In this document: piece after piece, positions 2,416 through 43,894 of the stretch
Layout of the letters: every line of letters starts with the position of its first letter
How positions within the stretch are numbered: position 1 is the stretch's first letter
The notes under the pieces: generated by a model
Seen by the model: the letters and a program-made list of their open reading frames with translations, nothing else
Database searches by the model: none
Told to the model about the DNA's origin: nothing
Translations under genes and position numbers: made by a program
DNA from: Deltaproteobacteria bacterium
Lineage (GTDB): Bacteria > Desulfobacterota > Desulfobacteria > Desulfobacterales > ETH-SRB1
Assembly (NCBI GenBank): GCA_030606805.1
Contig: JAUWFS010000001.1
Span: forward strand, 1-61,816
Direction of reading: 5' to 3'
Length of the DNA: 61,816 nt

Positions 2416-2432
2416 AGAAAGGGGTGTAAAGC

Positions 2433-2618: not shown

Positions 2619-2634
2619 AAAGGACGGTGAGAAT

Positions 2635-2871: not shown

Positions 2872-2872
2872 A

Positions 2873-3226: not shown

Positions 3227-3291
3227 TGCGTGTCGAAAAAGGGGAAAGGCTGTTAAAATTATAAAAATGAAAGACTTGAAAGAAAAAAGTG

Positions 3292-11600: not shown

Positions 11601-11771
11601 AAAAGGCCGGTAATTGAAATAAAACAAAAATACAATCCTGAAATTTGGGATAAACTGTATAATATGATGTTACAAGATAGAGGAAGAAAGCAGGACTTGA
11701 AACGGAAACGACGAGAAAAAAGAGAAAAGATATTACCCTCTGATCGTCATCAACAGATGGGGTTATTTTAG
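8616..11771 (+). CDS. SNF2/DEAD-like helicase precursor interrupted by an intein
   Basis: Walker A GEMGVGKT. The DExH box is split as LLVVDE|C...N|CHEYKG. C-terminal helicase motifs LVQTGLDL and RQSSRRSWRIGQ. Confidence 0.9.
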   Translation: MQTIKLTEFLKKYQNEIAASIIRDYPPLYQFSARDKYVSDIKKLQRKPYLAQFDSISALAELYSNENGNSAILVGEMGVGKTIIAIGLIYVAKFKKILIMCPPHLVKKWEREIRLTIPTGCVECHHLKKFTDVDLTVPLANDDKFHFFIVGRERAKLSYQWRPAYNIKQYIETENKENGDSSSRVKVKYITCPKCGGLVLDAEGIPLSPDEMKKKKMICARCGEFLWQAKETGPRRFAIAEYIKRKYKGFFDLLVVDECFPAGTKVKTIDGERNIEQILPGQHVLSYGKNGFVYKQVTRVFKRLSQEDFTKVEHEEGMLFSTLNHEIYTSKGKIAAGLLRKSDIIQVLSEEGSYEKKKKTVGGTQAKDRKSARASSNQKSGIKICHFSENEEKQSNKECGCSTKNIGFFKRKGLSSQKRWPWNWINRTAKIIVSIVGCSMGNRDNSKYAKRPSSLSLFYRYCKRIIKNSCRMRWIFALPNICSGKGQEKRFNAAKTRMDCSTIQQQGNYGEYRRCGSKNYKLRGKKIVRTKNVNIRPIIVYNLEVQDTHRYFANNVLVANCHEYKGRGSAQGYAAGILASACKRSLAMTGTLFGGYSSTLFHLLYRLSSTFKKDYEYSQVSKWIDHYGIWERVTKFNDDAYGDNIQSRGRKYRYAPREKPGISPVILPKYLLDKTVFVRLSDIAIDLPSLSEEIIDVQMSEEQTEAYDELYGQLRGALLAELQRGNKSLLAVYLQTLLTYPDRCTVGEQVYNKDEQLIATAPALNSDVLYPKEQAIVDLIKKEKANGRRVLVYCTHTNRRDVTARLQEKIQSDGNDIKSEILKASVPAEKREAWIQEHAEDLDCLITNSALVQTGLDLIEFPTVAYCQAGYSVYTLRQSSRRSWRIGQDKPVKIYYFVYAATMQEQALKLLALKMKASLIIEGELGEDGLATYNVGDDNLFYELARNIANNVSIDESLDVLWGNVQEKEKKSAADDLLIESLDDYEDKPDLNGALKRPVIEIKQKYNPEIWDKLYNMMLQDRGRKQDLKRKRREKREKILPSDRHQQMGLF
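9390..10295 (+). mobile_element. intein (Hint domain) inserted in helicase motif II
   Basis: Cys1 at 9390 (CFPAGTKVKTIDG) and block B TLNHEIYT. The C-terminal VYNLEVQDTHRYFANNVLVAN is followed by a +1 Cys at 10296. Confidence 0.85.
9676..10215 (+). CDS. nested homing endonuclease (NUMOD3 motifs + Vsr/DUF559-like PD-(D/E)xK), +1 frame inside the intein
   Basis: SD-like GAGGAAGGGAG sits just upstream of ATG 9676. Motifs LSEEHKRKIGKA and VRQKISGSLKG, plus core YSIDIA..KIAVECDG..RD..KD..LGWIVLRF. Confidence 0.8.
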   Translation: MRKRRKLSEEHKRKIGKAQELAQIKNPELRYATSARMKKNNPTKNAVVRQKISGSLKGKVFPAKRGGRGTGLTEPQKLLSQSLGAVWETEITVNTQNVHHPYHYSIDIANVSLKIAVECDGFSHCPIYAQERDKRKDLTLLRLGWIVLRFSNKEIMENTEDVVRKIINCEEKRSSELKT

Positions 11772-14294: not shown

Positions 14295-14488
14295 TGGGAT
14301 TGAGTATGCTGCTAAAAGTTATTGAAGACGGGATAGAAACATCATTCGAAATCGATACGGCCAGAGAGGCCGATGGAAAGCGTTGGGTGCAGATATGGCG
14401 GGCAAGTAAAAGTCTTTTTTCTGCTAAGTCTGTTGATGAGGCCGTAGATGAGATTGAGAAGATGCTGGCGTTAGAAGAACAGGAATAA
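14294..14488 (+). CDS. hypothetical protein
   Basis: 64 aa, coupled to its neighbours by ATG/stop overlaps. Confidence 0.6.
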   Translation: MGLSMLLKVIEDGIETSFEIDTAREADGKRWVQIWRASKSLFSAKSVDEAVDEIEKMLALEEQE

Positions 14489-15618
14489 TGTACAAAAAAA
14501 AACATACGAAGGGAGGTATGATGGAAGCAAAAAGAAAACAAGAAGAAAAGACCCAAGAAACACCAGGCAATGAGAAAAACAGTTTGGTACTCCTTGAAAT
14601 CGAAAAAGCCAAGAAAGCCGGCATGAATATGTTGTTGCCCAGTTCGGTGATTGAAGGTTTGGCCGAGTTCCATAGTCCTGTGATTGATTATGAGCAACTT
14701 TCACCCGAACCGACGGATGGTGATGTATATTTCCATACAGAAAGTGGGAAGTTTGCCCCTACAAAGCAGGGGCTTATGAAACTGGCTTTGTGTGCGGGTA
14801 TCATATGGGACCCGGTACGGCATAGGCGAACTGACAACAGAGGAGACAGGAATTACGTTTCCTTCCAGGCGGTTGCAGGTGTTAGAAAGGCTGATGGGAG
14901 TCTTGTCTGGCTGCCGGCAGAGTATGACATGGATTTTGAGGTAATTGAAGATAAACTCCAAAAACAATACAGGAAGAAGGCGAATGAACAAAAAAGCAAA
15001 ACCGAAGAGCAACGACAAGAATACGTTGATTACTGTGTAAGACGTGATCTTTTGTATAAACGGGAGCATAAGGTTAAGCTGTGCGAAACTGGGGCAATGA
15101 ATCGGGTTATAAGAATGCTTCTTGTTGGGTTAAAGGCAGGATATTCGAAGGCGGAGTTGAAGAAACCTTTTGTGGTGGCAAGAATAGTTTTTAAACCTGA
15201 CTATTCAGATCCGCAAATTCGTGACTTGATGATTCGGAGAGGCATTGACTCAATGACGTCTATCTATGGTGGAGAGAGCGCCGGAGAGATACATGGGGAA
15301 CCCCTCGCTTCTGATTTTTCTGATATTACACCCCTCGCTTCTGATGTTTCCAAGATGAGGCAAGAAAAACCAAAGAGCCCTCCCCAAGAAAATGATGAGC
15401 CGGAAGATAAAACGGGAGATGGTAACATAACAAATGCCGAAGCTGACTTTATGGCTTCTGATGACTCGTCTCAAATTAGCACGCTTAAAGCCCTGGCAAA
15501 AAGAAAAGATTATGACCTGAAACAATTAAAAAGGCCCCTTGATAAATTCACGGAAGCTGAGCGTAAAGGCTTTTTTGATAAGTTGATGGGAATGCCTGAT
15601 AGTGATATACCATTTTAA
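14488..15618 (+). CDS. recombination/replication-associated protein (possible annealing protein) with SSB-like C-terminal tip
   Basis: 376 aa, upstream of the SbcCD-like genes, ending ...MPDSDIPF. Alternative start at 14518/14521 behind GGGAGG. Function is uncertain. Confidence 0.75.
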   Translation: MYKKKHTKGGMMEAKRKQEEKTQETPGNEKNSLVLLEIEKAKKAGMNMLLPSSVIEGLAEFHSPVIDYEQLSPEPTDGDVYFHTESGKFAPTKQGLMKLALCAGIIWDPVRHRRTDNRGDRNYVSFQAVAGVRKADGSLVWLPAEYDMDFEVIEDKLQKQYRKKANEQKSKTEEQRQEYVDYCVRRDLLYKREHKVKLCETGAMNRVIRMLLVGLKAGYSKAELKKPFVVARIVFKPDYSDPQIRDLMIRRGIDSMTSIYGGESAGEIHGEPLASDFSDITPLASDVSKMRQEKPKSPPQENDEPEDKTGDGNITNAEADFMASDDSSQISTLKALAKRKDYDLKQLKRPLDKFTEAERKGFFDKLMGMPDSDIPF

Positions 15619-15883: not shown

Positions 15884-16029
15884 GTCTAAATAATATAACT
15901 ATAGGTACTGATGTAAGACGTTGCCCATATTGCGGGGAAGTGCTTTCTTTCAGAGATAGTAAAAGTTTTTGCAGGAAGTGTGAAAGAGAAATGCATAAAG
16001 TTGCTGTGGATTACGGGAAAAAATTATGA
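15880..16029 (+). CDS. small zinc-ribbon protein (49 aa)
   Basis: ATGA overlaps at both ends. Contains CPYCG...CRKC. Confidence 0.45.
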   Translation: MSLNNITIGTDVRRCPYCGEVLSFRDSKSFCRKCEREMHKVAVDYGKKL

Positions 16030-16667
16030 TTGCCGTTGGATATCCAGAAAAGGTGGAAAATCTGTTTTGGGCTAAAGTAGATAAATGCGGAGAGGACGAA
16101 TGTTGGGAGTGGCAAAAAGCTCGACATCCAAAGGGCTATGGACAGTTTAGCTTTAACGGAACGACTAATAGAGCGCATCGTGTTGCCTGGATATTAGTTT
16201 ATGGCCCAATTCCAAAGGGACTTTATGTTTGCCACCGGTGCGATAATCCACCATGTTGTAATCCAAAGCATTTGTTTTTGGGAACTCAGAAAGACAATAT
16301 GGAGGATTGTGCCAGAAAGGAAAGAAAAAAGCAGAAACTTTCTCAGAAAGATATTGTAGAGATAAGACGAAAATATACTGTAGATAAAATATTACAGGTT
16401 CAATTGGCTAAACAGTTTGGCATTAGCAACAGGACGATATCGCAAATAGTTGCTGGTGATAGATGGGCTTGGGTTGAATATCTTCCAAGTGGTGGTAAAT
16501 ATAAACCTCGTACAAAATTGTCTGATAAAGATGTTTTGGCGATTAGAAGGCGATATTCAAAAGGTAATATAACGAGCAAAAAACTGAGTGACATCTATCA
16601 TGTAAATCAAAGTACTATTTCGAGAATAACATCAATGCAAAGGAGAAAAGGGGTACGATGTGATTAA
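16026..16667 (+). CDS. HNH homing endonuclease with two HTH repeats
   Basis: CHRCDNPPCCNPKHLFLGTQKDNMED. Confidence 0.9.
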   Translation: MIAVGYPEKVENLFWAKVDKCGEDECWEWQKARHPKGYGQFSFNGTTNRAHRVAWILVYGPIPKGLYVCHRCDNPPCCNPKHLFLGTQKDNMEDCARKERKKQKLSQKDIVEIRRKYTVDKILQVQLAKQFGISNRTISQIVAGDRWAWVEYLPSGGKYKPRTKLSDKDVLAIRRRYSKGNITSKKLSDIYHVNQSTISRITSMQRRKGVRCD

Positions 16668-21944: not shown

Positions 21945-22352
21945 ATGTCCTTAAATCTCGTAACTTTAATTGGCTATACTGGTCGAGACCCTGAAATCAG
22001 ATATACCCCAAATGGAACTGCCGTAGCGAATTTCCCTCTGGCAACATCGGAAAAATGGACCGGTAAAGATGGAGAGAAAAAGGAAAGTACTGATTGGCAT
22101 CGGATAGTTTGTTTCCAGAAGACAGCCGAAATTGTCGGTGAGTATGTAAAAAAAGGCCAACAAATCTGTGTTACTGGTAAAATAAAAACCAGACAATGGG
22201 AAGACAAGGAAGATGTTAAAAGATGGACAACAGAAATTATTGCTAATCGTGTAGTTTTTCTTGGAAAGAAGCAAGATAGCGGTGAGCATCCTGCATTCGA
22301 AAAACCGCCGGAAAATCAAGAAGTAAAGTACGATGATGATATTCCGTTCTAA
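21945..22352 (+). CDS. ssb: single-stranded DNA-binding protein
   Basis: OB-fold N-terminus (LIGYTGRDPEIRYTPNGTAVANFPLA..TDWHRIV) and acidic tip DDDIPF. Confidence 0.95.
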   Translation: MSLNLVTLIGYTGRDPEIRYTPNGTAVANFPLATSEKWTGKDGEKKESTDWHRIVCFQKTAEIVGEYVKKGQQICVTGKIKTRQWEDKEDVKRWTTEIIANRVVFLGKKQDSGEHPAFEKPPENQEVKYDDDIPF

Positions 22353-29057: not shown

Positions 29058-29243
29058 ATGCAGATTAAAATTAAAAAACAATTGAAATGTAAACGATGTG
29101 GATACGAATGGAATCCTCGCAAAGAAGAAGTCAGGATATGTCCGAATTGCAAAAGCGCTTACTGGGATAAAGATAAGAGGAAAAAAATGAAGGAGGTAAT
29201 ATTAGGCGGTGAAGAAACTAAATCTCATAGGAAAACGCTTTAG
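29058..29243 (+). CDS. zinc-ribbon protein
   Basis: CKRCGYEW...CPNCKS. Confidence 0.6.
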   Translation: MQIKIKKQLKCKRCGYEWNPRKEEVRICPNCKSAYWDKDKRKKMKEVILGGEETKSHRKTL

Positions 29244-29919
29244 ACGATTGGTTGTAATAAAAGAGATTTCTCTTAGAGATAAACATGGAAGTGTGCTTTG
29301 GGAATGTCTATGCGATTGTGGAAATACGGCAATAGTCAGCCGAGGAAATCTTCGCTGTGGTGATACCAAAAGCTGTGGATGCTACGGAGAAGAAACCAGA
29401 GCGAAATCGTTTACAAAGCATGGATGTAGCTCTAACCCGATTTATCAAGTTTGGACGCGGATGATACAGCGATGCTATAATCTAAAACATAAGAGTTACA
29501 AAAATTATGGCGGACGCGGCATTACGATTTGTCTTGAATGGAAAGATAACCCGAAAAAATTTATTGTATGGGCTGAAATAAATGGCTGGCGAAAAACCTT
29601 GGATATTGATCGATTTGATAACGATAAAGGTTATTGTCCTGATAATTGTAGATTTGTGACAAGATCAGAGAGTAATTTAAATACTCGTTTGTTACGAGCA
29701 AATAATACTACTGGATTTAGAGGTGTTTATTGGCATAAAGCAAAGAAAAAATATATGGCCGGATCACAGTTAGATGGTAAGCAATACTATCTCGGTTTGT
29801 TTATAAGTGCTGTTGAAGCAGCTAAGGCCCGAGACAAATTTATTATAGAGAGAGGCTTGCATGCACCTTTAAATTTTCCAGATCAGAAACAAGCCAAAGA
29901 TTTGTTGAAAGGAAGATAG
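29209..29919 (+). CDS. AP2-domain / HNH-like homing-endonuclease family protein (paralog 1)
   Basis: LIGKRFRRLVV, CDCG...SCGC, YGGRGI, DIDRFDNDKGYCPDNCRF, and AP2-like FRGVYWHK..Y.A. GTG start. Confidence 0.75.
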   Translation: MKKLNLIGKRFRRLVVIKEISLRDKHGSVLWECLCDCGNTAIVSRGNLRCGDTKSCGCYGEETRAKSFTKHGCSSNPIYQVWTRMIQRCYNLKHKSYKNYGGRGITICLEWKDNPKKFIVWAEINGWRKTLDIDRFDNDKGYCPDNCRFVTRSESNLNTRLLRANNTTGFRGVYWHKAKKKYMAGSQLDGKQYYLGLFISAVEAAKARDKFIIERGLHAPLNFPDQKQAKDLLKGR

Positions 29920-30223: not shown

Positions 30224-30262
30224 TTATTTAAAACATAATACATAAAAGGGAGAATAAATAAA

Positions 30263-31159
30263 ATGGTACAAAAAGCATTATTTGGGATGAACAAGGAAGA
30301 GCTTAAAAAGGTGAAAGAAGCCGAAAAAAGGGAGGCTCAAAAAGCGTCAACTGCTGAAAAGTATCGAGAGTTAGGATATGATCAGAAAGATGTGATGAGT
30401 GCTCTCATTAAAGAAATGCGCCTCGGCAACTTGGAAGGCTCGATGTATTGGGCGCGGATTATGGAAGAAGCCGGAGATGCTTGGAATTTGTGTCGCCGGC
30501 TTCTTATTTTTGCATTTGAAGATGGATTTGGGGAAAAGATCCAAATTTATAGCGTGAGTTGCTGGCAGGCATGGGCATCTATTAAAGATGAAAATATCTG
30601 GTTTGCTTGGGTTGAAAGACTTTGCAAGGCCACTAAATTTTGGGAGGTGCCCGAAGGAGAGGAAAGAGAAACAGCCTACGACAAGGCAGACAAAGAGTTA
30701 AAAGCAGGGAAACGAAGACCAATTCCAGATTATGCAAAAGACTGCCACTGTAAAGCCGGGTATGAAATGAAAGCCGAGAAGGGCTATATGGATAACAGAT
30801 TTTCCGGTGATGGATATGGAAGATGGCAGATGATCAGGATGTATAAGAAACTCGGTAAGCTTGATCCAGACGATAAGGAATCCCTTAAGGCTGTGCAAAG
30901 CTATGGAAAAAGGAGTCAGTGGAAACCGAGAATTATGGAAAATCCCAAAGGAAATTATTTAGTAGAATCCCAGACAGGAGATGGTAATTTCTATGAAGTC
31001 CAGGCAGATTTGAGTAGTTGCCAGTGTCCTCATTATACGCAACGTCTCGTGGGGACAGGAAAAAAGTGTAAGCATATACAGCAATTGGAAGCGTATCTGA
31101 AAAAAAAGGGAATTGAAATCAAGAAACCTCAAAAAGTACTTAGTGATATTCCGTTTTAA
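30263..31159 (+). CDS. RarA/MgsA C-terminal-like domain + SWIM zinc finger protein with SSB-like tip
   Basis: SALIKEMRLGNLEGSMYWARIMEEAGD..CRRLLIFAFED, then CQCPHYTQRLVGTGKKCKH. Ends SDIPF. Confidence 0.75.
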   Translation: MVQKALFGMNKEELKKVKEAEKREAQKASTAEKYRELGYDQKDVMSALIKEMRLGNLEGSMYWARIMEEAGDAWNLCRRLLIFAFEDGFGEKIQIYSVSCWQAWASIKDENIWFAWVERLCKATKFWEVPEGEERETAYDKADKELKAGKRRPIPDYAKDCHCKAGYEMKAEKGYMDNRFSGDGYGRWQMIRMYKKLGKLDPDDKESLKAVQSYGKRSQWKPRIMENPKGNYLVESQTGDGNFYEVQADLSSCQCPHYTQRLVGTGKKCKHIQQLEAYLKKKGIEIKKPQKVLSDIPF

Positions 31160-31769: not shown

Positions 31770-31904
31770 ATGCCTAAAGGAGATGGAACAGGCCCCCCAA
31801 AAGGTGCAACTGGACCTAAAAATGGTAGGGGAAGAGGGAAAGGCCAAGCAACCGGTGCTGGTGTAGGTCGCAAAAAAGGTGGAAAGAAAGGAGCTTGTAA
31901 ATAA
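31770..31904 (+). CDS. DUF5320-like Gly-rich basic peptide (44 aa)
   Basis: AAGGAGGTGAG SD upstream. Translates to MPKGDGTGPPKGATGP...GACK. The track shows only the antisense shadow 31742..31924. Confidence 0.55.
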   Translation: MPKGDGTGPPKGATGPKNGRGRGKGQATGAGVGRKKGGKKGACK

Positions 31905-31918
31905 TTAAAGTAACTGGA

Positions 31919-32515
31919 ATGCAATTAATCAAAAAATTTGGCACAAGAAAAGGAAAAAAGGATTATATATCATCCTGGGGTTTGTTTTTGTGTCCTTATT
32001 GTAAAAAAGAAGTGGAAAGACAACTTTCTGCTGGAAGAATAGCTCAATCATGCGGATGCATGCGGGCAAAATTGATTGCAAAAGACCACATAAGACATGG
32101 TAAATCAAATACTCTTCTTTACGGGGTGCGAAAGGGGATGATTAATAGATGTTATAATTCTAATGATCACTCTTTTAAGTATTATGGCGGGCGTGGCATT
32201 AAAATATGTGAAGAGTGGAGAAATGATCACAAGTTATTTGAAATTTGGGCATTGAAAAATGGATACAAAAAAGGACTCCAAATTGATCGGAAGAATAATA
32301 ATGGAGACTATGAACCTGGAAATTGTAAGTTTTCAACGTCTACGGAAAACAACAGAAATAAACGAAATACAATAATGAATCAAGAAAGTGTAGAGAAATT
32401 AAGACAAATAAGACAAAAAACCAATTATAGTCAAAAGCAAATTGCAAAAATGTTCGGGATTTCTACCAGTCTTGTTAGGGATATTGTCAATGGTAAGCTA
32501 TGGCAAATTAAATAA
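31919..32515 (+). CDS. HNH-like homing-endonuclease family protein (paralog 2, HTH tail instead of AP2)
   Basis: Core YGGRGIKICEEW...QIDRKNNNGDYEPGNCKF is shared with 29209 and 35526. Confidence 0.7.
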   Translation: MQLIKKFGTRKGKKDYISSWGLFLCPYCKKEVERQLSAGRIAQSCGCMRAKLIAKDHIRHGKSNTLLYGVRKGMINRCYNSNDHSFKYYGGRGIKICEEWRNDHKLFEIWALKNGYKKGLQIDRKNNNGDYEPGNCKFSTSTENNRNKRNTIMNQESVEKLRQIRQKTNYSQKQIAKMFGISTSLVRDIVNGKLWQIK

Positions 32516-32566: not shown

Positions 32567-33811
32567 ATGAAAGTAGCATTGGTGGGGAATGACGGCCGGG
32601 TTAATGCCTTGTGTTGGCATTGCCAAAAGTATGGCCACTCAGTCTATGTTTTTAAGTCTCCAGAAAAACTACTCAAGCCGGGCGAGAATTACGATTTGAT
32701 TGTATTGGTTCATGTTGAAGATAGTGCAAACGGATTGCAGCAACAGTTGGTAGATATATTCGGCCCGGGAAAAGTTTTTGCTTGCAGTAAAGATGCTGTG
32801 CGATTTGAAACTGACAAGGTTTATGGTATTGATGTTGCTAAGGAACACGGCCTTGCTGTTCCACAGACGATTGTTATTGGACCATATTGGCCTGACGAGC
32901 CAGACATGTTCAATGTACTGAAGCTGATCCACAGTAAGATTCCAGAAAACCGATATGTAATCAAGAAATCTGGCCTGGCTTGTGGTCAAGGGGTTAAGAT
33001 TGTTAAGGGCACTGACGAATTGAGACTTTTTTTGGATAAGTGGACGAAAGTGAGTAGTGATAGCGTGCTCGTTCAGGAGTATAAAGAAGGTATTGAAATA
33101 TCAGGCCGTGTTTTGTGTCAGCAGGGTAAGATAATTCCGCTATGGATGACGATGGAACATAAGCGTGTTCATAATGATGACAGAGGAGCGTTCTGTGCCG
33201 AAATGGGCACTGTAATCTTGGCAGGTAGTCGCCAACCGATCATGGCCGAGATCCGAAAGCTTGAGCCCTGGCTGCATAAAGTCAATTACACCGGAATGCT
33301 TGATATCAATTTTATAATGGATGCGGAAGGCAAGTTTTGGTTTGTAGAACCTACCTGCCGATGGGGAGACCCGGAGACCGAAATTGCACTTCCTATGCTT
33401 GATTGTGATTTTGCAGAAATAGCTCTGAAAGCGTGTAGGGGTGAGGTATCAGAAGACGATATTGTTTTTGCTCATAAGGCCGCTGTGGGGGTTGTAATAG
33501 CTGGCGGGGGATATCCGTATCCGGGTTGTTGCTTGCAGGGTGTTCCTATTGAGCTACCGACTGATGAGTATCCTCTTGTGTTTCAGATGGGGACGGAAAA
33601 GAAAGATGGAAAGCTCGTTACTAAGGGTGGCCGGCATTTGGTAGTGGTGGCAATTGGTGAATCTGTAGAACTGGCGACGAGGCAGGTGTACGAGATGGTT
33701 CGATCTAATTATTGGTTTCTTGATGCCTGGTACCGGACAGATATTGGGGCAAAATGGCCGGATCAACGGTTTTCTTTATTTCAGTTGAGCCCGCAACCCT
33801 TCTCAGCTTAA
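32567..33811 (+). CDS. purD: phosphoribosylamine-glycine ligase-like ATP-grasp enzyme (divergent PurD)
   Basis: Collinear with PurD: MKVALVGNDGRVNAL, EHKR, CRWGDPE, GVVIAGGGYP, LVTKGGRHLVVVA, and RTDIG. The GPNTGGMG loop is replaced by GAFCAEMG. Confidence 0.8.
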   Translation: MKVALVGNDGRVNALCWHCQKYGHSVYVFKSPEKLLKPGENYDLIVLVHVEDSANGLQQQLVDIFGPGKVFACSKDAVRFETDKVYGIDVAKEHGLAVPQTIVIGPYWPDEPDMFNVLKLIHSKIPENRYVIKKSGLACGQGVKIVKGTDELRLFLDKWTKVSSDSVLVQEYKEGIEISGRVLCQQGKIIPLWMTMEHKRVHNDDRGAFCAEMGTVILAGSRQPIMAEIRKLEPWLHKVNYTGMLDINFIMDAEGKFWFVEPTCRWGDPETEIALPMLDCDFAEIALKACRGEVSEDDIVFAHKAAVGVVIAGGGYPYPGCCLQGVPIELPTDEYPLVFQMGTEKKDGKLVTKGGRHLVVVAIGESVELATRQVYEMVRSNYWFLDAWYRTDIGAKWPDQRFSLFQLSPQPFSA

Positions 33812-35525: not shown

Positions 35526-36179
35526 ATGAAAAAGATCGATTTAACTGAGAAAAGATTTGGTAGATTAACGGTAATTGAACAAGCAGGAAGCGATAAATGG
35601 GGATTTGCTCTTTGGATGTGCAAATGTGATTGCGGCGTCATAATTATTGTTAATGGGGGAAGCCTGAGAAGTGGATGTACAAAATCTTGTGGGTGTCTTC
35701 AAAGAGAAATAGCAAAGAAAAGATTAACTACACATGGACTTAGTAGCTCTCGAATATATAAAATATGGGCAAGTATGATACAGCGTTGCATAGATATTAA
35801 TTATGAAGATTATCATTATTACGGCGGACGCGGAATAACAGTCTGTAAACGATGGAAATTTTTCGAAAATTTCCTTGCTGATATGGGTGAGTGCCCAAAT
35901 GATTTTACATTAGAAAGGGTTGATAATGAAAAAGGTTATTTTTTAAAGAATTGTAAATGGGCAACGCATACTGAACAGAATCGTAATCAAAGAGTTCAGA
36001 AAAGAAATAAAACAGGTATTACAGGTGTATTTTGGTCTTCAGACAGAAATAAATTTCGATCTTATATTGGAGTAGGCGGAAGATTAATTCATCTTGGCTC
36101 TTTTAAAGAATTAAATAATGCAATCCTTGCCAGACAAGATGCCGAAATGAAGTATTGGAGAAAAAATAATTATGATTGA
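35526..36179 (+). CDS. AP2-domain / HNH-like homing-endonuclease family protein (paralog 3)
   Basis: LTEKRFGRLTV, CDCG...SCGC, YGGRGITVC, and ITGVFWS..KFRSYI. Confidence 0.75.
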   Translation: MKKIDLTEKRFGRLTVIEQAGSDKWGFALWMCKCDCGVIIIVNGGSLRSGCTKSCGCLQREIAKKRLTTHGLSSSRIYKIWASMIQRCIDINYEDYHYYGGRGITVCKRWKFFENFLADMGECPNDFTLERVDNEKGYFLKNCKWATHTEQNRNQRVQKRNKTGITGVFWSSDRNKFRSYIGVGGRLIHLGSFKELNNAILARQDAEMKYWRKNNYD

Positions 36180-36555: not shown

Positions 36556-37248
36556 ATGAAAAATTGGATGAAGAAAATTTTGATAATTAGTCCGCACAGC
36601 GACGACGAAACATTGTCCCTGGGCGGGACAATTTGTAATATCAAGGCTAAAGGTGGCCAAGTACGGGTTGTGGTAGCTGTGGCCGGAGACATTGTTTTTT
36701 GGCACAATGGTCGCGTAGAGGTACCGGCAGAGCAGAGAGTTGAGGAATTGCAAGCGGCCATGGAATGTTTAGGTGTCGATAGCTGGAGAATTGTCTTTAA
36801 GGAGCGAAATTTGGAATCAAGACTGGATACTATTCCTATACGGGAACTGGTCTATGAGTTTGATAAAGAAATCGAGATCTATCGTCCTGATACTTTATTT
36901 TTTCCACGAAAGTCATACCACCAGGATCACACGGTTGTTCAAAAAGCTGCAGTTGCAGCATGTAGGCCGAATTCAGATAAGTTTATGCCTTCACGAGTGA
37001 TTGAGTATGAATATCCAGGTAGCACCTGGAATGAGTCGAGCGAGGAGATTTGGGCAAATTTTTTTATCCGGATTTCGGGTAAAGTGCTTGAACGTAAGAT
37101 CGAGGCCTTTCAAAAACACTTTTCCCAGCAGAGGAAAAAGGAACATCTTTTTAGCATGGAGACGATCCGACTATGGGCAAAAATGAGGGGTAGAGAAGTA
37201 GGCGCCGAATATGCGGAAGCATTTAGGATTTGGAGGTGGATAGAATGA
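36556..37248 (+). CDS. PIG-L/LmbE-family deacetylase
   Basis: ILIISPHSDDETLSLGGT and HQDH. Confidence 0.8.
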   Translation: MKNWMKKILIISPHSDDETLSLGGTICNIKAKGGQVRVVVAVAGDIVFWHNGRVEVPAEQRVEELQAAMECLGVDSWRIVFKERNLESRLDTIPIRELVYEFDKEIEIYRPDTLFFPRKSYHQDHTVVQKAAVAACRPNSDKFMPSRVIEYEYPGSTWNESSEEIWANFFIRISGKVLERKIEAFQKHFSQQRKKEHLFSMETIRLWAKMRGREVGAEYAEAFRIWRWIE

Positions 37249-37931
37249 GAGTATCGATTTACCAGCCTGCGTATTTTCCAACACTCCACTATTTCAACAG
37301 AATTTTGGATTCGGACATATTTGTATTACTTGATACGGCTCAATTCACAAGAAGCGTAAGATATACAAATACGATGAAGATCAAAGGTAAATGTGGTCTT
37401 GTCAATATGACTGTTCCGATTGTCCATACGGGCAGACGTGAAATGTTTGTAAATCTTCTGGCTGATGATAACCAGCGATGGAGACAAAAACATTATGAAG
37501 CTTTGCGACATGCTTACGGAAAAACAGATGGATGGAGAATGTGTGGCAATTCCTTGCACTCTTTTTACGAAAATGAAGAGAGCCGTTTCAGTAGACTTTG
37601 TGAGCTTGCTGTAGATTGGGTCTTAAATGTTATAAAAAGTTGTAAAGTTGTAACTGTTCGTGCAAGTTCTTTGGGGGTTGATGGAAACGGTTCTCAATGG
37701 ATGCTTGATATTTGTAAGGAGCTGGATGCTACTGAATATCTGTGTGGTAAATCAGCATATGATAACTATTTGGATAAAGAGGCATTCAGGAAGGCCGGGA
37801 TCAAAATTGTAGTCCAGAACTGGACATGCCCGGAGTATCCGCAAATCAAAGTACCTTTTTCTTCTAACTTATCTATTCTTGATTTGGTTATGAACGTACA
37901 TGAAAGAAACAGGAGGGCTTTGTTAATATGA
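37245..37931 (+). CDS. WbqC-like family protein
   Basis: MRVSIYQPAYFPTLHYFNRI...LLDTAQF. ATG 37245 follows GGAGGTGGA and overlaps the upstream stop. Confidence 0.7.
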   Translation: MRVSIYQPAYFPTLHYFNRILDSDIFVLLDTAQFTRSVRYTNTMKIKGKCGLVNMTVPIVHTGRREMFVNLLADDNQRWRQKHYEALRHAYGKTDGWRMCGNSLHSFYENEESRFSRLCELAVDWVLNVIKSCKVVTVRASSLGVDGNGSQWMLDICKELDATEYLCGKSAYDNYLDKEAFRKAGIKIVVQNWTCPEYPQIKVPFSSNLSILDLVMNVHERNRRALLI

Positions 37932-38392
37932 AAGGTATAGATATGCTATTTAATTGTGGGAATTGCTTTCGATGTTGCTGTCATTTTACAAAAGATACGA
38001 TGGGACCGTTTATCCGAACAGACGAAATATATCAGATAGGGTCTCAGAATGTTCATAAGGTCAAGTTTTCTGGAATTGATGAACCAATGACAGTTATGAA
38101 AAGAAAGGATAACCGTTGCATGGCTTGGTCATATGAAGAGCACTGCACAATTTATTCAGTAAGGCCAGTGGATTGCCTGTTATATCCTTTCATGGTCAAA
38201 GATGGGAATATGATTATTCATCTTACATGCCCAGATGCAGTAAGAATATTGCAATTGATAGATGCTGGAAATGCTAAAGCAGAACGATTTTACTTAAACG
38301 CTAAAGATATTATCATGAGGGCTTCTGAAAAGTATTTAAGATACCTTGAGTATCAGACCAAAAATTTTCAGTTTTATTGTGTAGTAAAATGA
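37928..38392 (+). CDS. YkgJ-family cysteine-cluster protein
   Basis: CGNCFRCCC ... C.IYSVRPVDCLLYPF. Confidence 0.7.
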   Translation: MKGIDMLFNCGNCFRCCCHFTKDTMGPFIRTDEIYQIGSQNVHKVKFSGIDEPMTVMKRKDNRCMAWSYEEHCTIYSVRPVDCLLYPFMVKDGNMIIHLTCPDAVRILQLIDAGNAKAERFYLNAKDIIMRASEKYLRYLEYQTKNFQFYCVVK

Positions 38393-38404
38393 AAGGACAT
38401 AAAA

Positions 38405-39466
38405 ATGTATCAAAATCAAGATGAATGGACAGAACTAAGCGAATTCCTAAAAGAAGTCTATTTCAGCGAAAGATGGTCTTATTACGGCGGTGGAAAGTTT
38501 CATACCAGATTTGAAAATCTGGCGAGTGCAAAACTGTTTGAAGGACAAAAACAAGTGCTATTGGTTGCCAATGGAACTGTGGCTCTTGAGTTAGCAATCC
38601 GAGCAGCGTTTCATAACACTGCTTATCATATTAAACTTGGTATTCCGGTATTGACAGTCCCAATGGTGAAGTGGGCAGTGGAAAGGTCTGGCTGTGTTGA
38701 CGAAATTCGGTATTTGGATGTAGATCCAAAAACATTTTGTATTCGTGAGATTCCAAGTGATATTGACGGAGTGGTTTGGGTTCATACAGGTGGATTGATG
38801 TCAGCAAAAACAGAACGTATGTTTAATAGATGTCGTAAGGATAATATAACGATAATTGAAGATATTTCACATGCATACGGTTCATCATACAACGGGAGAA
38901 GAGCGGGAACGGGTGGTCATTTTGTTGCTGGTTCTTTCTTTGGGACAAAGGTGCTTACGTGTGGTGAAGGAGGTTTTGTTGGGACACACTCAAAGGTCTG
39001 TTACGATTTTATGAAAGTGATGAGAAACCAAGGAAAAAATGATGATTTTGAGCAGATAATGGAAGGCTATAATTATAGGGTCAATGAGTTCACCGCGGCC
39101 ATAGCATTTGCGAGGCTGAAAAGACTTGAAAAAGAACTTGCTTTGAGAGGGATAATTGCAGAAAAATACGACATGGCACTTCGTGAAATAGATATTCGAA
39201 GTGTTGAAAAAGAACTTGGTTGTATGACCGGTTTCTATAAATACATAGTTAGGACAAAACATGCTCACAAACTGGACGAGCGGATGGAAAATGAAGGTCT
39301 GTCGTTTACAGACTGGGTTCATGATAAACTTTTAGCACAGGGGAATTACCCCGGAGCTGAAGAGGTAGCAGATGGTCATGTGTGTTTACAACTGATTCAA
39401 GACTCAACCGAAAGAGACAAATATATCAATACGTTCAAAAGATTATGGAAGGAGATAAACAGATGA
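38405..39466 (+). CDS. DegT/DnrJ/EryC1/StrS-family PLP sugar aminotransferase
   Basis: NGTVALELAIRA, EDISHAYGS, SFFGTKVLTCGEGG, and NYRVNEFTAAI. Confidence 0.9.
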   Translation: MYQNQDEWTELSEFLKEVYFSERWSYYGGGKFHTRFENLASAKLFEGQKQVLLVANGTVALELAIRAAFHNTAYHIKLGIPVLTVPMVKWAVERSGCVDEIRYLDVDPKTFCIREIPSDIDGVVWVHTGGLMSAKTERMFNRCRKDNITIIEDISHAYGSSYNGRRAGTGGHFVAGSFFGTKVLTCGEGGFVGTHSKVCYDFMKVMRNQGKNDDFEQIMEGYNYRVNEFTAAIAFARLKRLEKELALRGIIAEKYDMALREIDIRSVEKELGCMTGFYKYIVRTKHAHKLDERMENEGLSFTDWVHDKLLAQGNYPGAEEVADGHVCLQLIQDSTERDKYINTFKRLWKEINR

Positions 39467-40386
39467 AGTGCCTTGTAACCGGAGGAAGTGGGTTTGTTGG
39501 CCGGCATCTCGTAAAGGAGCTTTTGGATAGAGGAGATGAAGTTTGGAACTGTGATGTTCGTTTGCCTAAAGAACATTGGAAGGGTGAGACATATCTTCAT
39601 AATAACAAAAGCGATCTTAAACAGATGTTGGAAAGTAATTTTATGAAAGGTGTTGACGAGGTCTATGATATGGGGGCAATCGTAGGCACTGGAGGTTTTG
39701 AAGCTGGCGCTGCTATGGCCTCACTTAGTGTTAATGCTGGTGGCACTCTTGGTCTTTTATGGGTTGCTGATAATTCAAAGGTTAAAAGATTTTACTATCC
39801 TGCTGTGCCGGATGATTTTGCCAATATTTACACGGTAACGAAAAAGGCTGGCGAAATGTTTTGTAAAATATTTGAAAGCAAATCCGGCATGGAAATTAAG
39901 TTGCTGAGATGGGGAAATATCTATGGCCCAGGCCAGGCTTTAATTCCCAGGAGGCTCGTTCCTTATACCATTATGAATTTGCTCGCCGGGAAACCTGTGC
40001 AGATCTTTGGCAAGGGGTTGCAAAAGGTTGAAATGATACATGTTAAGGATGTGGCCCGTATCACGGTTGAATTTATGCGTAACGGACCTTCAAAGACGAT
40101 GTATGATGTGGACTGTCAGGCATTTATATCGGTGCGCGATTTAGCATATTTAATGTGGTGCTTGGCGAAATCAGAATCGTTGGTTGATTATGTGCCCATG
40201 AGAGATGGTGAGGAGGAAATTGTAGATGAAGAGCCCAGTGGCGATGTTTGGTTATCATCAGATATGCCAGAACTTTTTGAACAAATACCCCTTGAAAGAG
40301 GTTTGCGTGAAACAATCGAATGGTACAAAGAGCGCCCCTTCTTGCTAAAAGAGGGTTTAGAATATTACGAAAAGTCGGAGAAATAG
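39463..40386 (+). CDS. NAD-dependent epimerase/dehydratase (SDR)
   Basis: MKCLVTGGSGFVGRHL and the YTVTK catalytic dyad. ATGA overlap with the upstream gene. Confidence 0.9.
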   Translation: MKCLVTGGSGFVGRHLVKELLDRGDEVWNCDVRLPKEHWKGETYLHNNKSDLKQMLESNFMKGVDEVYDMGAIVGTGGFEAGAAMASLSVNAGGTLGLLWVADNSKVKRFYYPAVPDDFANIYTVTKKAGEMFCKIFESKSGMEIKLLRWGNIYGPGQALIPRRLVPYTIMNLLAGKPVQIFGKGLQKVEMIHVKDVARITVEFMRNGPSKTMYDVDCQAFISVRDLAYLMWCLAKSESLVDYVPMRDGEEEIVDEEPSGDVWLSSDMPELFEQIPLERGLRETIEWYKERPFLLKEGLEYYEKSEK

Positions 40387-40390
40387 ATTA

Positions 40391-41866
40391 ATGCGCATAG
40401 CCATGATTCCAAATCCCGGAGTAGGTATATTGAAAAGCGATAGTGATTATATAGCGGTCGAGAATATTATTAACTATTGCGGGCAGTTTCATGACGATAT
40501 GTTTTTTTATGTAGTACTTTCCGGGAGCTATGAAGGTCAAGTTGGAGATGGAGATCTTCCGAGAACTAAGTTTGTGTGGTTGGATAAAGAGGCGGATTTC
40601 ATGTTTCGACATGCATGTATAGATTCGGATTTTGCCAAGTATTTCTATGTCCGTGGAGGAAAATATTTAATAGATTGTATATACAGCACAAGACTTTTTG
40701 AAGGGGTTCATATAAGCCAGTTGCTTACTGATTACCGAACATCACACTATGTACCGGTAGTTCTTGCAACGATTGCTCCATGGGAATACGGAACATTCAG
40801 CGAGGGTAGAAAAAGACCAAAAATACAATATGATTGTGCTACTGCAATGTCATTTGCCCTTTGCAATCCGATTTTTTATGGCCGGCGTGATTATCTTAAT
40901 AGTCAACAATATGTACGGCAATGCCTTTCCCCTTATTTTCAGAGAATGTTTGAAAAAACCTGCATGTATACCGATATTGCCCTTACGATTCCCGAAATGG
41001 ACGAAATTATCAAATCAACCCAAAAGTACAAAAAGTTCACCCTGTATTACGGAACCCGGTTTGCAACCGTAAAACAGGTAGATAAGGTAATGAAGGTCTA
41101 TGAGCAACTGTATAGTTCCGGAATGGACGTAGATATCGTTTTTACCACACAGACTGGTTGGCGACAGATTGCAAAAAGAAAGTACGTCCAGGATACGCTC
41201 AAAAGCGGATCGATTAGATATCTGATAACCAGTTATGACAAGTTTAGATATATGCGGGAAGCAGCCAGGGGGCACGTATTTATGGCAGCGTCCCTGGATG
41301 AAAATTTGTCCAGTTTTATCTTTGAACAAATTTATCTTGGTCTTATAGGCGTTTTGCCGAACCGGCCATGGGTCCTTGAAAGCCTACCTAAAGAATATCC
41401 TTTCCTTTGGAACAATCTGTCTGAGGCATATGGAATGATTAAGTGGATTTACGAAAATTATGAGCAGGCTAAGGCCAAGATAAATCCGTATCGTAAGATG
41501 ATTAATGAAAAATATGATTTGCCGAACATGATGCAGGACCTGGTGAATCATATTAGAAAGGTGGCACAAATTGGGATTGAAAGAAATAGAGAGATGACCG
41601 GTACCCAGAGCAGGAGCAGGATATGGAAAGAGGTACAAAATTTTGTAATTAGTGAGTACGACGAAGATGCAATCCGATTGCAGAGTTTTCTGAAGATGAT
41701 TGATAAAAGATTTACTGGATTTAAGACAGCACTATTGGAGAAGCCAGGAGGACCGTCACGGACTGTACCGACCAAGATATTGTTTAAGAACATGCTTGAG
41801 AAGATGGGTTATGAGGATAATTGCCAGGAAGCGGAACCGGTATTTGAAAGGAGGCGTAAGGAATAA
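40391..41866 (+). CDS. large protein, possible GT-B glycosyltransferase
   Basis: MRIAMI Rossmann-like start and an E-x7-E-like DENLSSFIFEQIYLGLIGVLP. This is a weak, motif-only call. Confidence 0.45.
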   Translation: MRIAMIPNPGVGILKSDSDYIAVENIINYCGQFHDDMFFYVVLSGSYEGQVGDGDLPRTKFVWLDKEADFMFRHACIDSDFAKYFYVRGGKYLIDCIYSTRLFEGVHISQLLTDYRTSHYVPVVLATIAPWEYGTFSEGRKRPKIQYDCATAMSFALCNPIFYGRRDYLNSQQYVRQCLSPYFQRMFEKTCMYTDIALTIPEMDEIIKSTQKYKKFTLYYGTRFATVKQVDKVMKVYEQLYSSGMDVDIVFTTQTGWRQIAKRKYVQDTLKSGSIRYLITSYDKFRYMREAARGHVFMAASLDENLSSFIFEQIYLGLIGVLPNRPWVLESLPKEYPFLWNNLSEAYGMIKWIYENYEQAKAKINPYRKMINEKYDLPNMMQDLVNHIRKVAQIGIERNREMTGTQSRSRIWKEVQNFVISEYDEDAIRLQSFLKMIDKRFTGFKTALLEKPGGPSRTVPTKILFKNMLEKMGYEDNCQEAEPVFERRRKE

Positions 41867-43027: not shown

Positions 43028-43147
43028 ATATGGGAATAGGATCGCATCAAAGTACACACATGAAAACTGATGAATGGCTTACACCACCCGAAGCAGGGAA
43101 AATTCAACAAACCTTATTTAATAAATCTGTTATGGAGAAAGAATAGA

Positions 43148-43894
43148 ATGACAACAAAAAAACAGGATGAAGTTTTCGTCCGGCCCGTGGTTATGCTTGA
43201 CGTAGATCTTCTTGACAACGCAGATTATAATCCCCAGGAGCAGCTTAAAATCACATTTAATGAACTGGTTAAGAAAATTCGGAGAAATGGTTTCTGCGGA
43301 ACAGTGAAAGTTGCCCCGAACCTGAAAAAGAAAGGGCGCTTTCTTATTGTTGCCGGCAATCATGCCGTAGATGCAGCCAGATTGATTGAGTTAAAGAAAG
43401 TTCCTTGCAATGTATTTGAGGATTGGGATGAGGACAGGCAGAAAGCAGAAAATGTCAGTGACAATATAGTTAGAGGAAAATTCAATCCCGAAAAACTGGC
43501 CAAAGTTTATGATGACCTGGCGAAAAAGTATGGGGATGAACTTACCCAGCAAATGATGAGTCTTGAGGTTGATAATACCATTGTCAGTCAGATAATGAAA
43601 CAGATCCGGCGAGAGGTACCTCCTGAGATGCAAAAACAACTGGACAATGCCAAAGGTGAGATCAAGACAGTTGACCAGCTTTCGGCGATCCTTAACGAGA
43701 TGTTCACCAAGTATGGAGATGACCTGCAGTATGGATTTATGGTCTTTGAATTTGGTGGCAAATCTCATTACTGGATCAAGATGAACAATAAGCTCAAGAA
43801 AAAGATGCAGGGATTCACCGATGAATGCCGCGAAACAGGCGGGCAATTATCGGAGCGACTTTATGCTGCCATGGGATGTGATGAAGAAACTTGA
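43148..43894 (+). CDS. ParB N-terminal-domain (nuclease-like) protein
   Basis: ATG 43148. Contains LDNADYNPQ, VKKIRRNGF, and FLIVAGNHAVDAARL. Confidence 0.7.
   Translation: MTTKKQDEVFVRPVVMLDVDLLDNADYNPQEQLKITFNELVKKIRRNGFCGTVKVAPNLKKKGRFLIVAGNHAVDAARLIELKKVPCNVFEDWDEDRQKAENVSDNIVRGKFNPEKLAKVYDDLAKKYGDELTQQMMSLEVDNTIVSQIMKQIRREVPPEMQKQLDNAKGEIKTVDQLSAILNEMFTKYGDDLQYGFMVFEFGGKSHYWIKMNNKLKKKMQGFTDECRETGGQLSERLYAAMGCDEET

Follow-up and report, generated by a model that had tools for sequence, protein, structure and literature searches.

What does a phage gain from a protein that joins the C-terminal domain of RarA to a zinc finger and ends in the C-terminal tip of SSB? The gene at 30263..31159 raises this question in the window, by which we mean the entire stretch of 61,816 nucleotides of DNA analysed here. 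Bacterial genome maintenance relies on the SSB C-terminal tip as its central address label, and antibacterial research also aims at this tip. The gene and its product are organized as follows:

30248..30252, + strand: ribosome-binding site GGGAG, 10 nt before the ATG, read from the sequence.
30263..31159, + strand: complete coding sequence for 298 amino acids plus stop, comprising a stand-alone MgsA_C domain, a SWIM finger and a C-terminal SDIPF tip; open reading frame and translation, with homologs P0001-P0013 collinear.
30263..30373, + strand: long N-terminal helix rich in Lys and Glu, residues 1-37; helix at residues 11-37 in the AF2 model.
30374..30877, + strand: helical MgsA_C domain (C-terminal in RarA, resembling a clamp-loader collar), residues ~38-205; PF12002, profile matches to PDB entries, Foldseek and invariant columns.
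30878..30928, + strand: low-confidence interdomain linker, residues ~206-222; pLDDT <50 at 193-196 and 198-218, length differing among homologs.
30929..31111, + strand: SWIM-type zinc finger module, residues ~223-283; invariant ligands, Pfam SWIM matches in four of 13 family members and AF2 secondary structure.
31112..31141, + strand: tail linker GIEIKKPQKV, residues 284-293, short, basic and variable; its columns vary in homolog alignment A1.
31142..31156, + strand: C-terminal tip S-D-I-P-F, residues 294-298, a putative docking motif resembling SSB-Ct; translation, with the hydrophobic-Pro-Phe end kept in homologs.

A preliminary description of this DNA had recognized a RarA/MgsA C-domain by eye, and this proved sound: the profile alignment shows the motif noted there, SAlIKemRlG..YW....eAGd...cRRLlI.a.ED, and both Pfam and Foldseek agree. 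Pfam MgsA_C (PF12002) matches residues 58-176 with 31.4 bits, above its curated cut-off of 27, and is also matched by all 13 family members, and the protein contains the conserved MgsA_C motifs SALIKEMRLG, CRRLLIFAFED, RRPIPDYAKDCHCKAG and DNRFSG. The family profile matches the solved RarA/MgsA C-terminal fragments 3ctd, 2r9g, 8g28, 2qw6, 3bge and 3pvs (E 8e-10 to 8e-5), profile positions 17-103 corresponding to chain residues 231-323 of the E. coli RarA structure 3pvs, while the AF2 model matches 2r9g, 3ctd, 8g28, 3bge and 3pvs with a Foldseek probability of 1.0 (E 8e-5 to 3e-2). An AAA+ module is absent: the protein has no AAA, AAA_assoc_2 or RuvB_N match in Pfam, and a Walker A motif (G....GK[ST]) was not found in its clade. 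With neither AAA+ module nor lid, the ATP-dependent activities of RarA are impossible. Judged from its domain content, the protein is not a RarA ortholog; it begins at the equivalent of about residue 231 of RarA. Nor is it full-length RarA or a truncated pseudogene, since it belongs to a conserved and widespread family and has its own start and ribosome-binding site. An OB fold is likewise absent, as there is no match to Pfam SSB (PF00436) and the AF2 model is helical with a small beta/alpha finger. The PADLOC defence models gave no match for the window protein or for the family members P0066, P0116 and P0121, and neither the PADLOC nor the NCBIfam library holds a model specific to the MgsA_C-SWIM family. 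One marginal PADLOC match was seen for P0118 (PDC-S62, E 0.0096, 12.5 bits).

The SWIM CxC..CxH finger reported in the preliminary description stands as well. C253, C255, C269 and H271 do not vary among 18 diverse homologs, which reach down to ~20% identity, and in the AF2 model three beta strands lead to C253xC255, followed by a helix and by C269xH271 at a helix start. Pfam SWIM (PF04434) gives no match to the window protein at E<=10 and matches four of the 13 family members, the best with E 3.3e-4. The architecture, which looked new in the preliminary description, is not unique to this phage. Pairing of MgsA_C with SWIM is common, in both orders, among uncharacterised metagenomic proteins: when 12 close homologs and 148 representatives from a profile search were classified by domain order, 28 of the 160 were MgsA_C-SWIM and 32 SWIM-MgsA_C. 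Two members of the swapped order have acidic ends in PF (P0121, REEPF; P0122, DDIEDDETPF). Our literature search found no description of the MgsA_C plus SWIM architecture. Cultured Arthrobacter phages likewise encode MgsA_C on its own, in proteins that are mis-annotated as "AAA-ATPase". For locus finding, a broader alignment (A4) proved too divergent, and a narrower one (A5) returned only full-length RarA-like genes of 432-488 aa on large viral contigs and not the stand-alone family.

The C-terminus of the protein reads ...KKPQKVLSDIPF before the stop, and residues 291-298 are disordered in the AF2 model (mean pLDDT 39). Two further products of the window end in the same way, as had been pointed out in the preliminary description:

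21945..22352, + strand: phage SSB with an OB fold, ending DDDIPF, the reference tip; Pfam SSB, 120 bits, and translation.
14488..15618, + strand: third tip-bearing protein, 376 aa, phrog_13782, ending SDIPF; disordered linker and small helical C-terminal domain, AF2 mean pLDDT 81.7.

Together with the 30263..31159 product they are the only three to do so among the window's 395 open reading frames of 40 aa or more. Among 5152 open reading frames from six-frame translation of the window and 80 related viral loci, [DE]x0-1[ILVM]P[FY]-COOH is confined to SSB, the family of the 14488..15618 protein, the 30263..31159 protein and one spurious frame. Among 1073 open reading frames of 19 further loci, hydrophobic-Pro-Phe/Tyr ends belong to the same three families and to two spurious frames on the minus strand. 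Since such tips are thus almost confined to three families in ~6,200 open reading frames from related loci, a chance ending can be rejected. A recent duplication at the DNA level can be discarded too, because the three tips of the window use different synonymous codons. The 3' end of the SSB gene does have a 10-mer and a 7-mer in common with the sequence, but at only weak significance (p ~0.006) and in different frames.

Is the tip also kept by selection? The preliminary description had named loss of the terminal DIPF in homologs as one finding that would speak against a docking role, and here the picture is divided: the hydrophobic-Pro-Phe core is kept at the very C-terminus of most homologs, but the acidic part is not conserved. 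Nine of the ten full-length close database homologs (70-88% identity) end in I/L/F/P-P-F. The exact sequence SDIPF is shared by P0001 and the window protein, and P0066, with 43% identity and the same synteny, ends TDDLPF. In the homolog alignment the preceding linker varies and the hydrophobic-Pro-Phe end stays, from which we strongly infer that selection maintains the terminal hydrophobic-Pro-Phe-COOH as a short linear motif and that it is not a chance ending. Most close homologs have zero or one acidic residue before the tip (SGGIPF, SGAFPF, SGKLPF, VKPPF) and the window protein has one Asp; two or more are present in over 95% of the 120 SSBs compared, and two or three are also typical of the 14488 family. 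The tail linker of the MgsA_C-SWIM family, ~10-15 residues long and basic, is much shorter than the disordered linker of SSB. Because the acidic part is not conserved and the linker is short and basic, the tip has to be considered a partial mimic of the SSB tip. It is absent in P0009 (locus L003), P0012, P0065 and other branches, and in locus L016 the whole MgsA_C-SWIM gene is truncated by an insertion; loss in some lineages together with gene disruption in another points at an accessory function.

The same variation allows a different reading of the tail, namely as a G-x-hydrophobic-P-F-COOH motif that binds something else, for instance the sliding clamp or a protein of the phage, or that merely caps the fold, the identity with SDIPF being a matter of partial convergence. 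Such a motif would fit a basic tail linker and a tail in which the acidic run is not conserved and Gly at -5 or -4 often is (SGEIPF, SGGIPF, SGDIPF, SGAFPF, SGKLPF). In the branch formed by P0013, P0064 and P0068, moreover, the proteins end in ...W[VTL]PF directly after the SWIM helix, and this end may be part of the structure instead of serving for docking. Convergence does not readily explain why hydrophobic-P-[FY] ends are otherwise confined to SSB and the annealase-like family in the ~6,200 related-locus reading frames, why the window protein and P0001 end in exactly SDIPF and why P0066 ends in TDDLPF. A beta-clamp-binding motif was rejected because the tail has no conserved pattern of the Q-L-x-L-F type. 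Taken together, we regard a different motif as unlikely.

The two companions of the protein bear on what the tip might do. The nearest cellular relatives of the phage SSB are SSBs from Thermodesulfobacteriota that end DDIPF. In the 14488 family ~40 of the 47 homologs, some with as little as 31% identity, keep the full D-[IVLM]-P-[FY] tip. Human RAD52 is the entry of the PDB that the 14488..15618 protein matches best in fold, although weakly (E 0.02, probability 0.6-0.8), and the sequence profile of the family found no match in the PDB, so that the assignment derives from this weak fold match. On this basis the predicted structure makes it probably a Rad52-like ssDNA-annealing or ssDNA-binding protein. 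The proposal that the phage places the SSB docking peptide on non-SSB proteins therefore stands insofar as both the 30263..31159 and the 14488..15618 products bear the tip, but a protein that probably anneals or binds ssDNA itself makes its tip less surprising than the term "non-SSB protein" implies.

With three tip-bearing proteins co-encoded, the recognition could be internal to the phage. MgsA_C would then be the receptor for the tails of phage SSB and annealase, and the protein's own tip would auto-inhibit this site or link molecules head to tail, giving a multivalent network on ssDNA. RarA binds SSB-Ct and is a documented client of the SSB tip, recruited by the SSB C-terminus (PMC5389604, PMC6101539), in line with its inclusion among the tip partners in the preliminary description. 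Furthermore, acidic or aromatic tails recur in distant proteins with MgsA_C and SWIM, and in locus L003, a single case, SSB is missing from the syntenic position and the MgsA_C-SWIM homolog is also devoid of the tip. Against this, we found no published mapping of the SSB-Ct site of RarA to its C-terminal domain, AF2 leaves the tail undocked on the domain (pLDDT 39, residues 291-298) and a tail of this kind is lacking from most MgsA_C proteins that stand alone. Recognition within the phage appears improbable to us.

The genetic surroundings point to replication and recombination. The window carries genes for SSB, a DnaC-like helicase loader, SbcCD and an SNF2 helicase; a DNA polymerase was not found in it. 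Related contigs measure 89-183 kb, so the window may not be the whole genome. One relative is a prophage in a metagenome-assembled genome (MAG) of the Thermodesulfobacteriota. A nucleotide search with 24 kb against 50,697 phage records gave no match and hence no cultured relative, a scan of genome contigs yielded no relative and a scan of metagenomes only short contigs. Among the contigs collected, all three tip-bearing genes occur together in the window only, since the rest break off before reaching them or carry a disrupted gene. Downstream of 30263..31159 follow GARS-like, PIG-L, WbqC, aminotransferase, epimerase and glycosyltransferase genes, and homologs are found just upstream of PIG-L/WbqC/methyltransferase/glycosyltransferase or GARS-like genes in loci L001, L011, L012, L014 and L018. 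A glycosyltransferase gene also follows the stand-alone MgsA_C gene of an Arthrobacter phage. It is conceivable from this synteny that the protein is an accessory factor of the adjoining DNA- or sugar-modification cluster, targeting or regulating its genes. However, the intervening stretch varies in its genes and contains inserted homing endonucleases, the domain content speaks for DNA replication and repair, and a role in modification offers no reason for an SSB-type tip, all of which renders this explanation highly improbable.

The best reading of the locus, one that we put forward tentatively on the grounds of domain content and tail conservation, is that 30263..31159 encodes an ATPase-less adaptor that putatively engages the pockets for the SSB tip while phage DNA is replicated or recombined. 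Such a non-enzymatic adaptor would act at phage replication or recombination intermediates. Its collar-type domain probably renders it oligomeric, as judged from RarA, and since RarA is a tetramer, an oligomer of the phage protein would show several tips, like the SSB tetramer. The SWIM finger would provide contact with DNA or protein, and the tip would occupy the site that receives SSB-Ct in SSB-interacting proteins, a hydrophobic pocket with a basic lip. Candidate partners are the chi subunit of Pol III, primase, PriA, RecQ, ExoI, RecO and RarA of the host; the partners are most likely host proteins because the phage appears dependent on the host replisome. The adaptor may either bring SSB-tip partners to its site or compete with SSB for them. 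The few acidic residues before the tip predict weaker or more selective binding than that of a true SSB tail. This reading is also favoured by the agreement of the tip with the DDIPF ends of SSBs from Thermodesulfobacteriota, the likely host group, by the joint absence of SSB and tip in the single case of L003 and by the acidic PF ends of P0121 and P0122.

As RarA itself is among these candidates, the protein might instead be a decoy directed against it. Either the collar domain would co-assemble with host RarA or the tip would fill RarA's SSB-Ct pocket, leaving RarA poor in ATPase or mislocalised and lifting a host brake on the recombination-dependent or restart-type replication that the phage needs. 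The phage domain is homologous to the part of RarA beyond the AAA+ module, and RarA acts as a tetramer that is recruited by SSB-Ct (PMC5389604, PMC8735627). In B. subtilis, RarA acts as an SsbA-dependent inhibitor of replication initiation through PriA (PMC6101539), and replication arrest by overproduced RarA or IncA has been described (bioRxiv 10.1101/2025.01.13.632716). A recombination module consisting of SbcCD, the putative annealase and SSB would be in keeping with such a need. The identity to bacterial RarA C-domains, ~20-28%, is however low for mixed oligomers, members without the tip persist, and a simple decoy does not explain the wide independent diversification with a conserved SWIM finger in either order. 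We therefore consider an anti-RarA decoy decidedly unlikely.

Returning to the adaptor, its tip is best seen together with those of its companions: judging from the three shared ends, the phage probably connects several of its products to the SSB-partner network of the host. A more far-reaching version, which we consider somewhat unlikely, is a shared tail code in which the host SSB tip has been copied onto at least three unrelated scaffolds: one is the SSB with its OB fold, one a Rad52-like annealase and one the RarA-collar/SWIM adaptor. On this view the MgsA_C-SWIM protein would be a multivalent pseudo-SSB hub, an oligomer that shows tips without OB-fold ssDNA binding and redirects or jams host SSB clients including RarA at phage DNA. 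If so, the widespread MgsA_C plus SWIM proteins would constitute a new class of ATPase-less regulators of the SSB/RarA network in mobile elements. If phages tag proteins other than OB-fold proteins, viruses would exploit the SSB interactome by motif mimicry, beyond encoding an SSB of their own; our literature search found nothing specific on mimicry of the SSB tip by non-SSB phage proteins. In that case the C-terminal domain of RarA would gain a natural and separable study tool, occurring without the ATPase, a large uncharacterised family now mislabelled "AAA-ATPase" would receive a testable function, and the rule of a C-terminal D/E-x-hydrophobic-Pro-Phe/Tyr could be used to find more proteins that hijack the hub. 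Should the tip bind something else, the finding shrinks to a correction of annotation.

Among known systems, bacterial RarA/MgsA (yeast Mgs1, human WRNIP1) shares with the phage protein a helical PF12002 domain that is homologous by sequence and predicted fold; the phage protein differs in that AAA+ module and lid are missing, a SWIM finger is added and the protein bears the ligand, the tip, instead of being solely a client of SSB-Ct. Closer in build are the proteins of phrog_33349, represented by Arthrobacter phage DanielleIgnace gp90 and by BeatusComedenti, with the same ATPase-less MgsA_C and the motifs P.YA.D.H...G and [DN]RFSG. In contrast to the window protein they have neither SWIM finger nor tip, and the label "ATPase" is a misnomer for them. 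With SWIM zinc finger proteins (PF04434) the protein has in common the CxCxnCxH signature and beta strands followed by a helix, but MgsA_C as the fusion partner was not found described.

Compared with SSB-Ct (DDDIPF), the tail likewise closes the chain with I-P-F and its free alpha-carboxylate, preceded by residues that are disordered and vary in sequence, and its core is identical to the tips of the co-encoded SSB and of Thermodesulfobacteriota SSBs; on the other hand, no OB fold is attached, a single acidic residue precedes I-P-F and the linker is short and basic. Phage T7 offers a parallel in that acidic Phe-terminated tails occur on several replication and recombination proteins of one phage and compete for one site: the tails of gp4 and gp2.5 bind the same site on gp5 (PMC12339929). 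The matching tails on T7 replisome proteins mentioned in the preliminary description agree with the literature as one tail type on two proteins. The T7 tails target the phage's own polymerase, whereas here the code is of the host SSB-Ct type, the window contains no phage polymerase and the carriers are unrelated. The phage protein Bas52_0087, a non-canonical SSB-like protein and trigger of DRT10, ends FDDDIPF, and an interface with SSB clients of the host such as ExoI has been proposed for it (bioRxiv 10.64898/2026.04.29.721553). It has two predicted OB folds, making it an ssDNA binder, unlike the 30263..31159 protein, which has none; both, however, are phage proteins other than a classical SSB that carry an SSB-type tip.

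Analysis of the reading frame that joins a RarA-like domain to an SSB-like C-terminus started from the following gene:

30263..31159, plus strand: MgsA_C-SWIM gene, translated into 298 aa with the C-terminal end ...KKPQKVLSDIPF

It is preceded by the ribosome-binding site GGGAG 10 nt 5' of the start, and its downstream neighbour begins 8 nt past the stop codon with an AAGGAG site of its own, so that the tail is constrained by no second reading frame. The preliminary description had recognized the C-domain of RarA/MgsA in the N-terminal part by eye, and this assignment holds. Pfam MgsA_C (PF12002) matches residues 58-176 with 31.4 bits versus a curated cut-off of 27, the family profile matches six solved RarA/MgsA C-terminal fragments in the PDB, among them E. 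coli RarA (3pvs), and the motif spotted by eye is present in the profile alignments to the solved structures. The AlphaFold2 model (mean pLDDT 74) features helices across residues 11-196 and is matched to RarA/MgsA C-terminal structures by Foldseek with a probability of 1.0. The N-terminus is roughly equivalent to RarA residue 231 in the profile alignment, and neither an AAA+ module nor a Walker A motif is present in the protein. After a low-confidence linker, the model contains three short strands and two helices bearing C253xC255...C269xH271, four residues that are unchanged across 18 homologs with identities down to about 20%. The SWIM finger proposed initially is accepted on the basis of this signature and the secondary structure; support by hidden Markov models is partial, as Pfam SWIM matches four of 13 family members (best E 3.3e-4) but not the window protein itself.

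Of the 395 open reading frames in the window that are 40 aa or longer, exactly three terminate in DIPF, all of them named in the preliminary description: SSB (21945..22352; Pfam SSB match of 120 bits), the MgsA_C-SWIM protein and the product of a further gene:

14488..15618, plus strand: 376-aa protein belonging to phrog_13782

Two sets of real-sequence reading frames served as an empirical null for the tip. Among 5152 six-frame reading frames from the window and 80 related viral loci, [DE]x0-1[ILVM]P[FY]-COOH is confined to SSB, the family of the 14488..15618 protein, the MgsA_C-SWIM protein and one spurious case, and among 1073 reading frames from 19 loci around homologs, hydrophobic-Pro-Phe/Tyr ends occur in the same three families and in two spurious minus-strand frames. 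Synonymous codons differ among the three DIPF tips, which argues for upkeep at the protein level and rules out a recent DNA copy. We conclude that the tip of the MgsA_C-SWIM protein is a real, selected motif. The 3' ends of the SSB gene (22308..22352) and of the MgsA_C-SWIM gene (31115..31159) have AAATCAAGAA and AAAGTAC in common, located 5' of the tip codons and in different frames (p about 0.006 versus random window segments). These shared words are a weak hint that the tail may have been captured from the SSB gene.

Of the 16 matches returned by a word-indexed search, 11 are close homologs with 70-88% identity, including one fragment, and two (P0012 and P0013) are more distant relatives; the truncated chimera P0014 and two full-length RarA-type ATPases make up the remainder. 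Among the close homologs, the linker of about 12 residues past the SWIM helix is freely variable while the end is retained (SDIPF, GKLPF, GEIPF, GGIPF, GQIPF, GDIPF, GAFPF, KPPF), a pattern in the alignment that marks a short linear motif. KKKTDDLPF terminates a relative of 43% identity whose gene neighbourhood is the same, and in P0013, P0064 and P0068 a W[VTL]PF end follows immediately after the SWIM helix. P0012 and P0065 lack the tip, as does a subclade comprising P0009 and the homolog on IMG/VR contig L003, both of which stop early; no frameshifted tip was found in the DNA downstream of this early end. A rough NJ tree suggests that either an old tip was lost several times or several independent gains may have occurred. 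Most members of the family have none or one acidic residue ahead of I-P-F; two to three are found in nearly all of 120 SSBs and in the family of the 14488..15618 protein. Conservation of the tip among homologs is therefore borne out for the hydrophobic-Pro-Phe end in close relatives, but not for the acidic run nor in all lineages, and mimicry of the SSB tip is partial. Ends like GEIPF could alternatively represent a distinct G-x-hydrophobic-P-F motif that addresses some other partner; DIPF of the window protein is shared with SSB.

In related locus L016 (7796..8581, encoding P0014), the MgsA_C-SWIM gene breaks off at about 58 codons, where an unrelated inserted reading frame is joined to it; the gene is thus accessory. 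The inserted frame is free-standing in L003 (5782..7116, 444 aa) and thus looks like a mobile insertion.

About 40 of the 47 homologs of the 14488..15618 protein (P0017-P0063) end in D-[IVLM]-P-[FY], mostly DDDIPF, down to 31% identity. In IMG/VR (L020-L099), the near clade carries the tip; in a distant clade of 25-30% identity, a Cys-rich KCQKG tail takes its place. Canonical SSB is absent within 10 kb at most loci of tip-bearing members. In the structural model (pLDDT 81.7), an alpha/beta core is joined by a disordered linker of 50 residues to a small helical C-terminal domain, after which comes the tip. Its best fold match in the PDB is human RAD52, albeit weak (E 0.02, probability 0.6-0.8), and no sequence match to the family was found there. 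These features indicate that the protein is probably an annealase or a non-canonical ssDNA binder using the SSB address label. The tip is less unexpected here than on the MgsA_C-SWIM protein, but still interesting.

The combination of MgsA_C and SWIM, first thought to be new, is uncharacterized yet not unique. We found no treatment of it in the literature, an NCBIfam model specific to the family does not exist, and PADLOC models matched neither the window protein nor its close relatives. In sequence space, however, the family profile has 1668 matches among 1.8 billion representative proteins. Architectures were counted for 160 proteins (12 close homologs from the word-indexed search and 148 of the best representatives among the 1668 matches): 28 are MgsA_C-SWIM, 32 have the swapped order, 74 contain MgsA_C alone (a few being full-length RarA) and the remaining 26 comprise SWIM only, as fragments or repeats. 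Pairing in both orders argues for the domains acting jointly. Two swapped-order members have acidic tails ending in PF (REEPF, DDIEDDETPF) and others acidic tails ending in W or F; enrichment of such tails beyond the clade of the window protein is at most suggestive. A stand-alone MgsA_C protein (phrog_33349) is encoded in cultured Arthrobacter phages; it shares the internal motifs but has neither SWIM finger nor tip. In phage DanielleIgnace, this is gp90 (L015, 3968..4744; 258 aa), which has no ATPase motifs. The label 'AAA-ATPase' on these proteins is a misleading misnomer.

The window is a segment of a tailed-phage genome with genes for portal, major head and major tail proteins. Its replication and recombination genes encode the 14488..15618 protein, SbcD- and SbcC-like nucleases, SSB, a 304-aa protein, a DnaC/IstB-like loader, a DUF5131 protein and an SNF2 helicase. 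DNA polymerase or primase was not found in the window, which is perhaps shorter than the full genome (related contigs span 89-183 kb). The nearest cellular relatives of the phage SSB are Thermodesulfobacteriota SSBs with DDIPF tips, and P0012 resides in a prophage within a Thermodesulfobacteriota MAG; by these sequence relationships, Thermodesulfobacteriota are the likely hosts. The SNF2-family helicase (8616..11771, plus strand) carries a HINT/intein-like insert (PT-HINT match at residues 266-354), and in a related prophage (L011 from 20878) the T4-type portal gene harbours two inteins. Free-standing homing-endonuclease-like genes (HNH_3, AP2 and HTH types; 1235..1849, 3846..4559, 4947..5666, 16026..16667, 29209..29919, 31919..32515 and 35526..36179, all plus strand) occur at unusually high density, and two of them directly flank the MgsA_C-SWIM region. 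A 44-codon reading frame (31770..31904, plus strand) for a predicted Gly/Lys/Pro-rich peptide, MPKGDGTGPPKGATGPKNGRGRGKGQATGAGVGRKKGGKKGACK, lies between the downstream neighbour and a homing endonuclease gene. In a related phage (L017, 8914..9102), a gene for a protein resembling T7 Gp5.9 (RecBCD inhibitor family) is situated between those for SbcC and SSB. Further downstream follows a cluster that is conserved and syntenic in all relatives:

32567..33811, 36556..41866 and 43070..43894, plus strand: downstream cluster, also found in related loci L001, L011, L012 and L018

It encodes a GARS-like ATP-grasp enzyme, a PIG-L deacetylase, WbqC, a DegT aminotransferase, an NAD epimerase/dehydratase, a glycosyltransferase and a ParB_N protein, and resembles a pathway for sugars or for DNA hypermodification. 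It is conceivable that the role of the MgsA_C-SWIM protein is tied to this cluster, upstream of which it is encoded.

The SSB tip recruits many genome-maintenance proteins including RarA (PMC5389604, PMC6101539, PMC10164576), a tetramer of the clamp-loader clade (PMC5389604, PMC8735627). We tentatively favour, at somewhat less than even odds, an ATPase-less, probably oligomeric adaptor whose tip would dock in the pockets that bind the SSB C-terminus, with the SWIM finger as a second contact. Since the phage seems to rely on the replisome of its host, partners would most likely be host proteins, and the weak acidic context may make binding less tight or more selective than that of SSB. In L003 (IMGVR_UViG_3300031578_009495; 2365..3291 and 9989..10837), the SSB gene is absent between those for SbcC and the DnaC-like loader, its place in the window, and the MgsA_C-SWIM homolog ends in ...KKEET without a tip; this single case fits a shared code. 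A dominant-negative or pocket-plugging decoy against host RarA is a rival reading, motivated by the inhibitory effects of RarA on replication (PMC6101539; bioRxiv 10.1101/2025.01.13.632716). MgsA_C could also recognize SSB-type tips itself, the protein's own tail causing auto-inhibition or cross-linking; in the AlphaFold2 monomer model the tail is undocked. The finding belongs with already known themes, shared C-terminal docking tails and mimicry of the SSB C-terminus: T7 polymerase uses one site for the tails of both gp2.5 and gp4 (PMC12339929), and for a phage OB-fold protein that carries FDDDIPF, an interface with host ExoI has been proposed (bioRxiv 10.64898/2026.04.29.721553).
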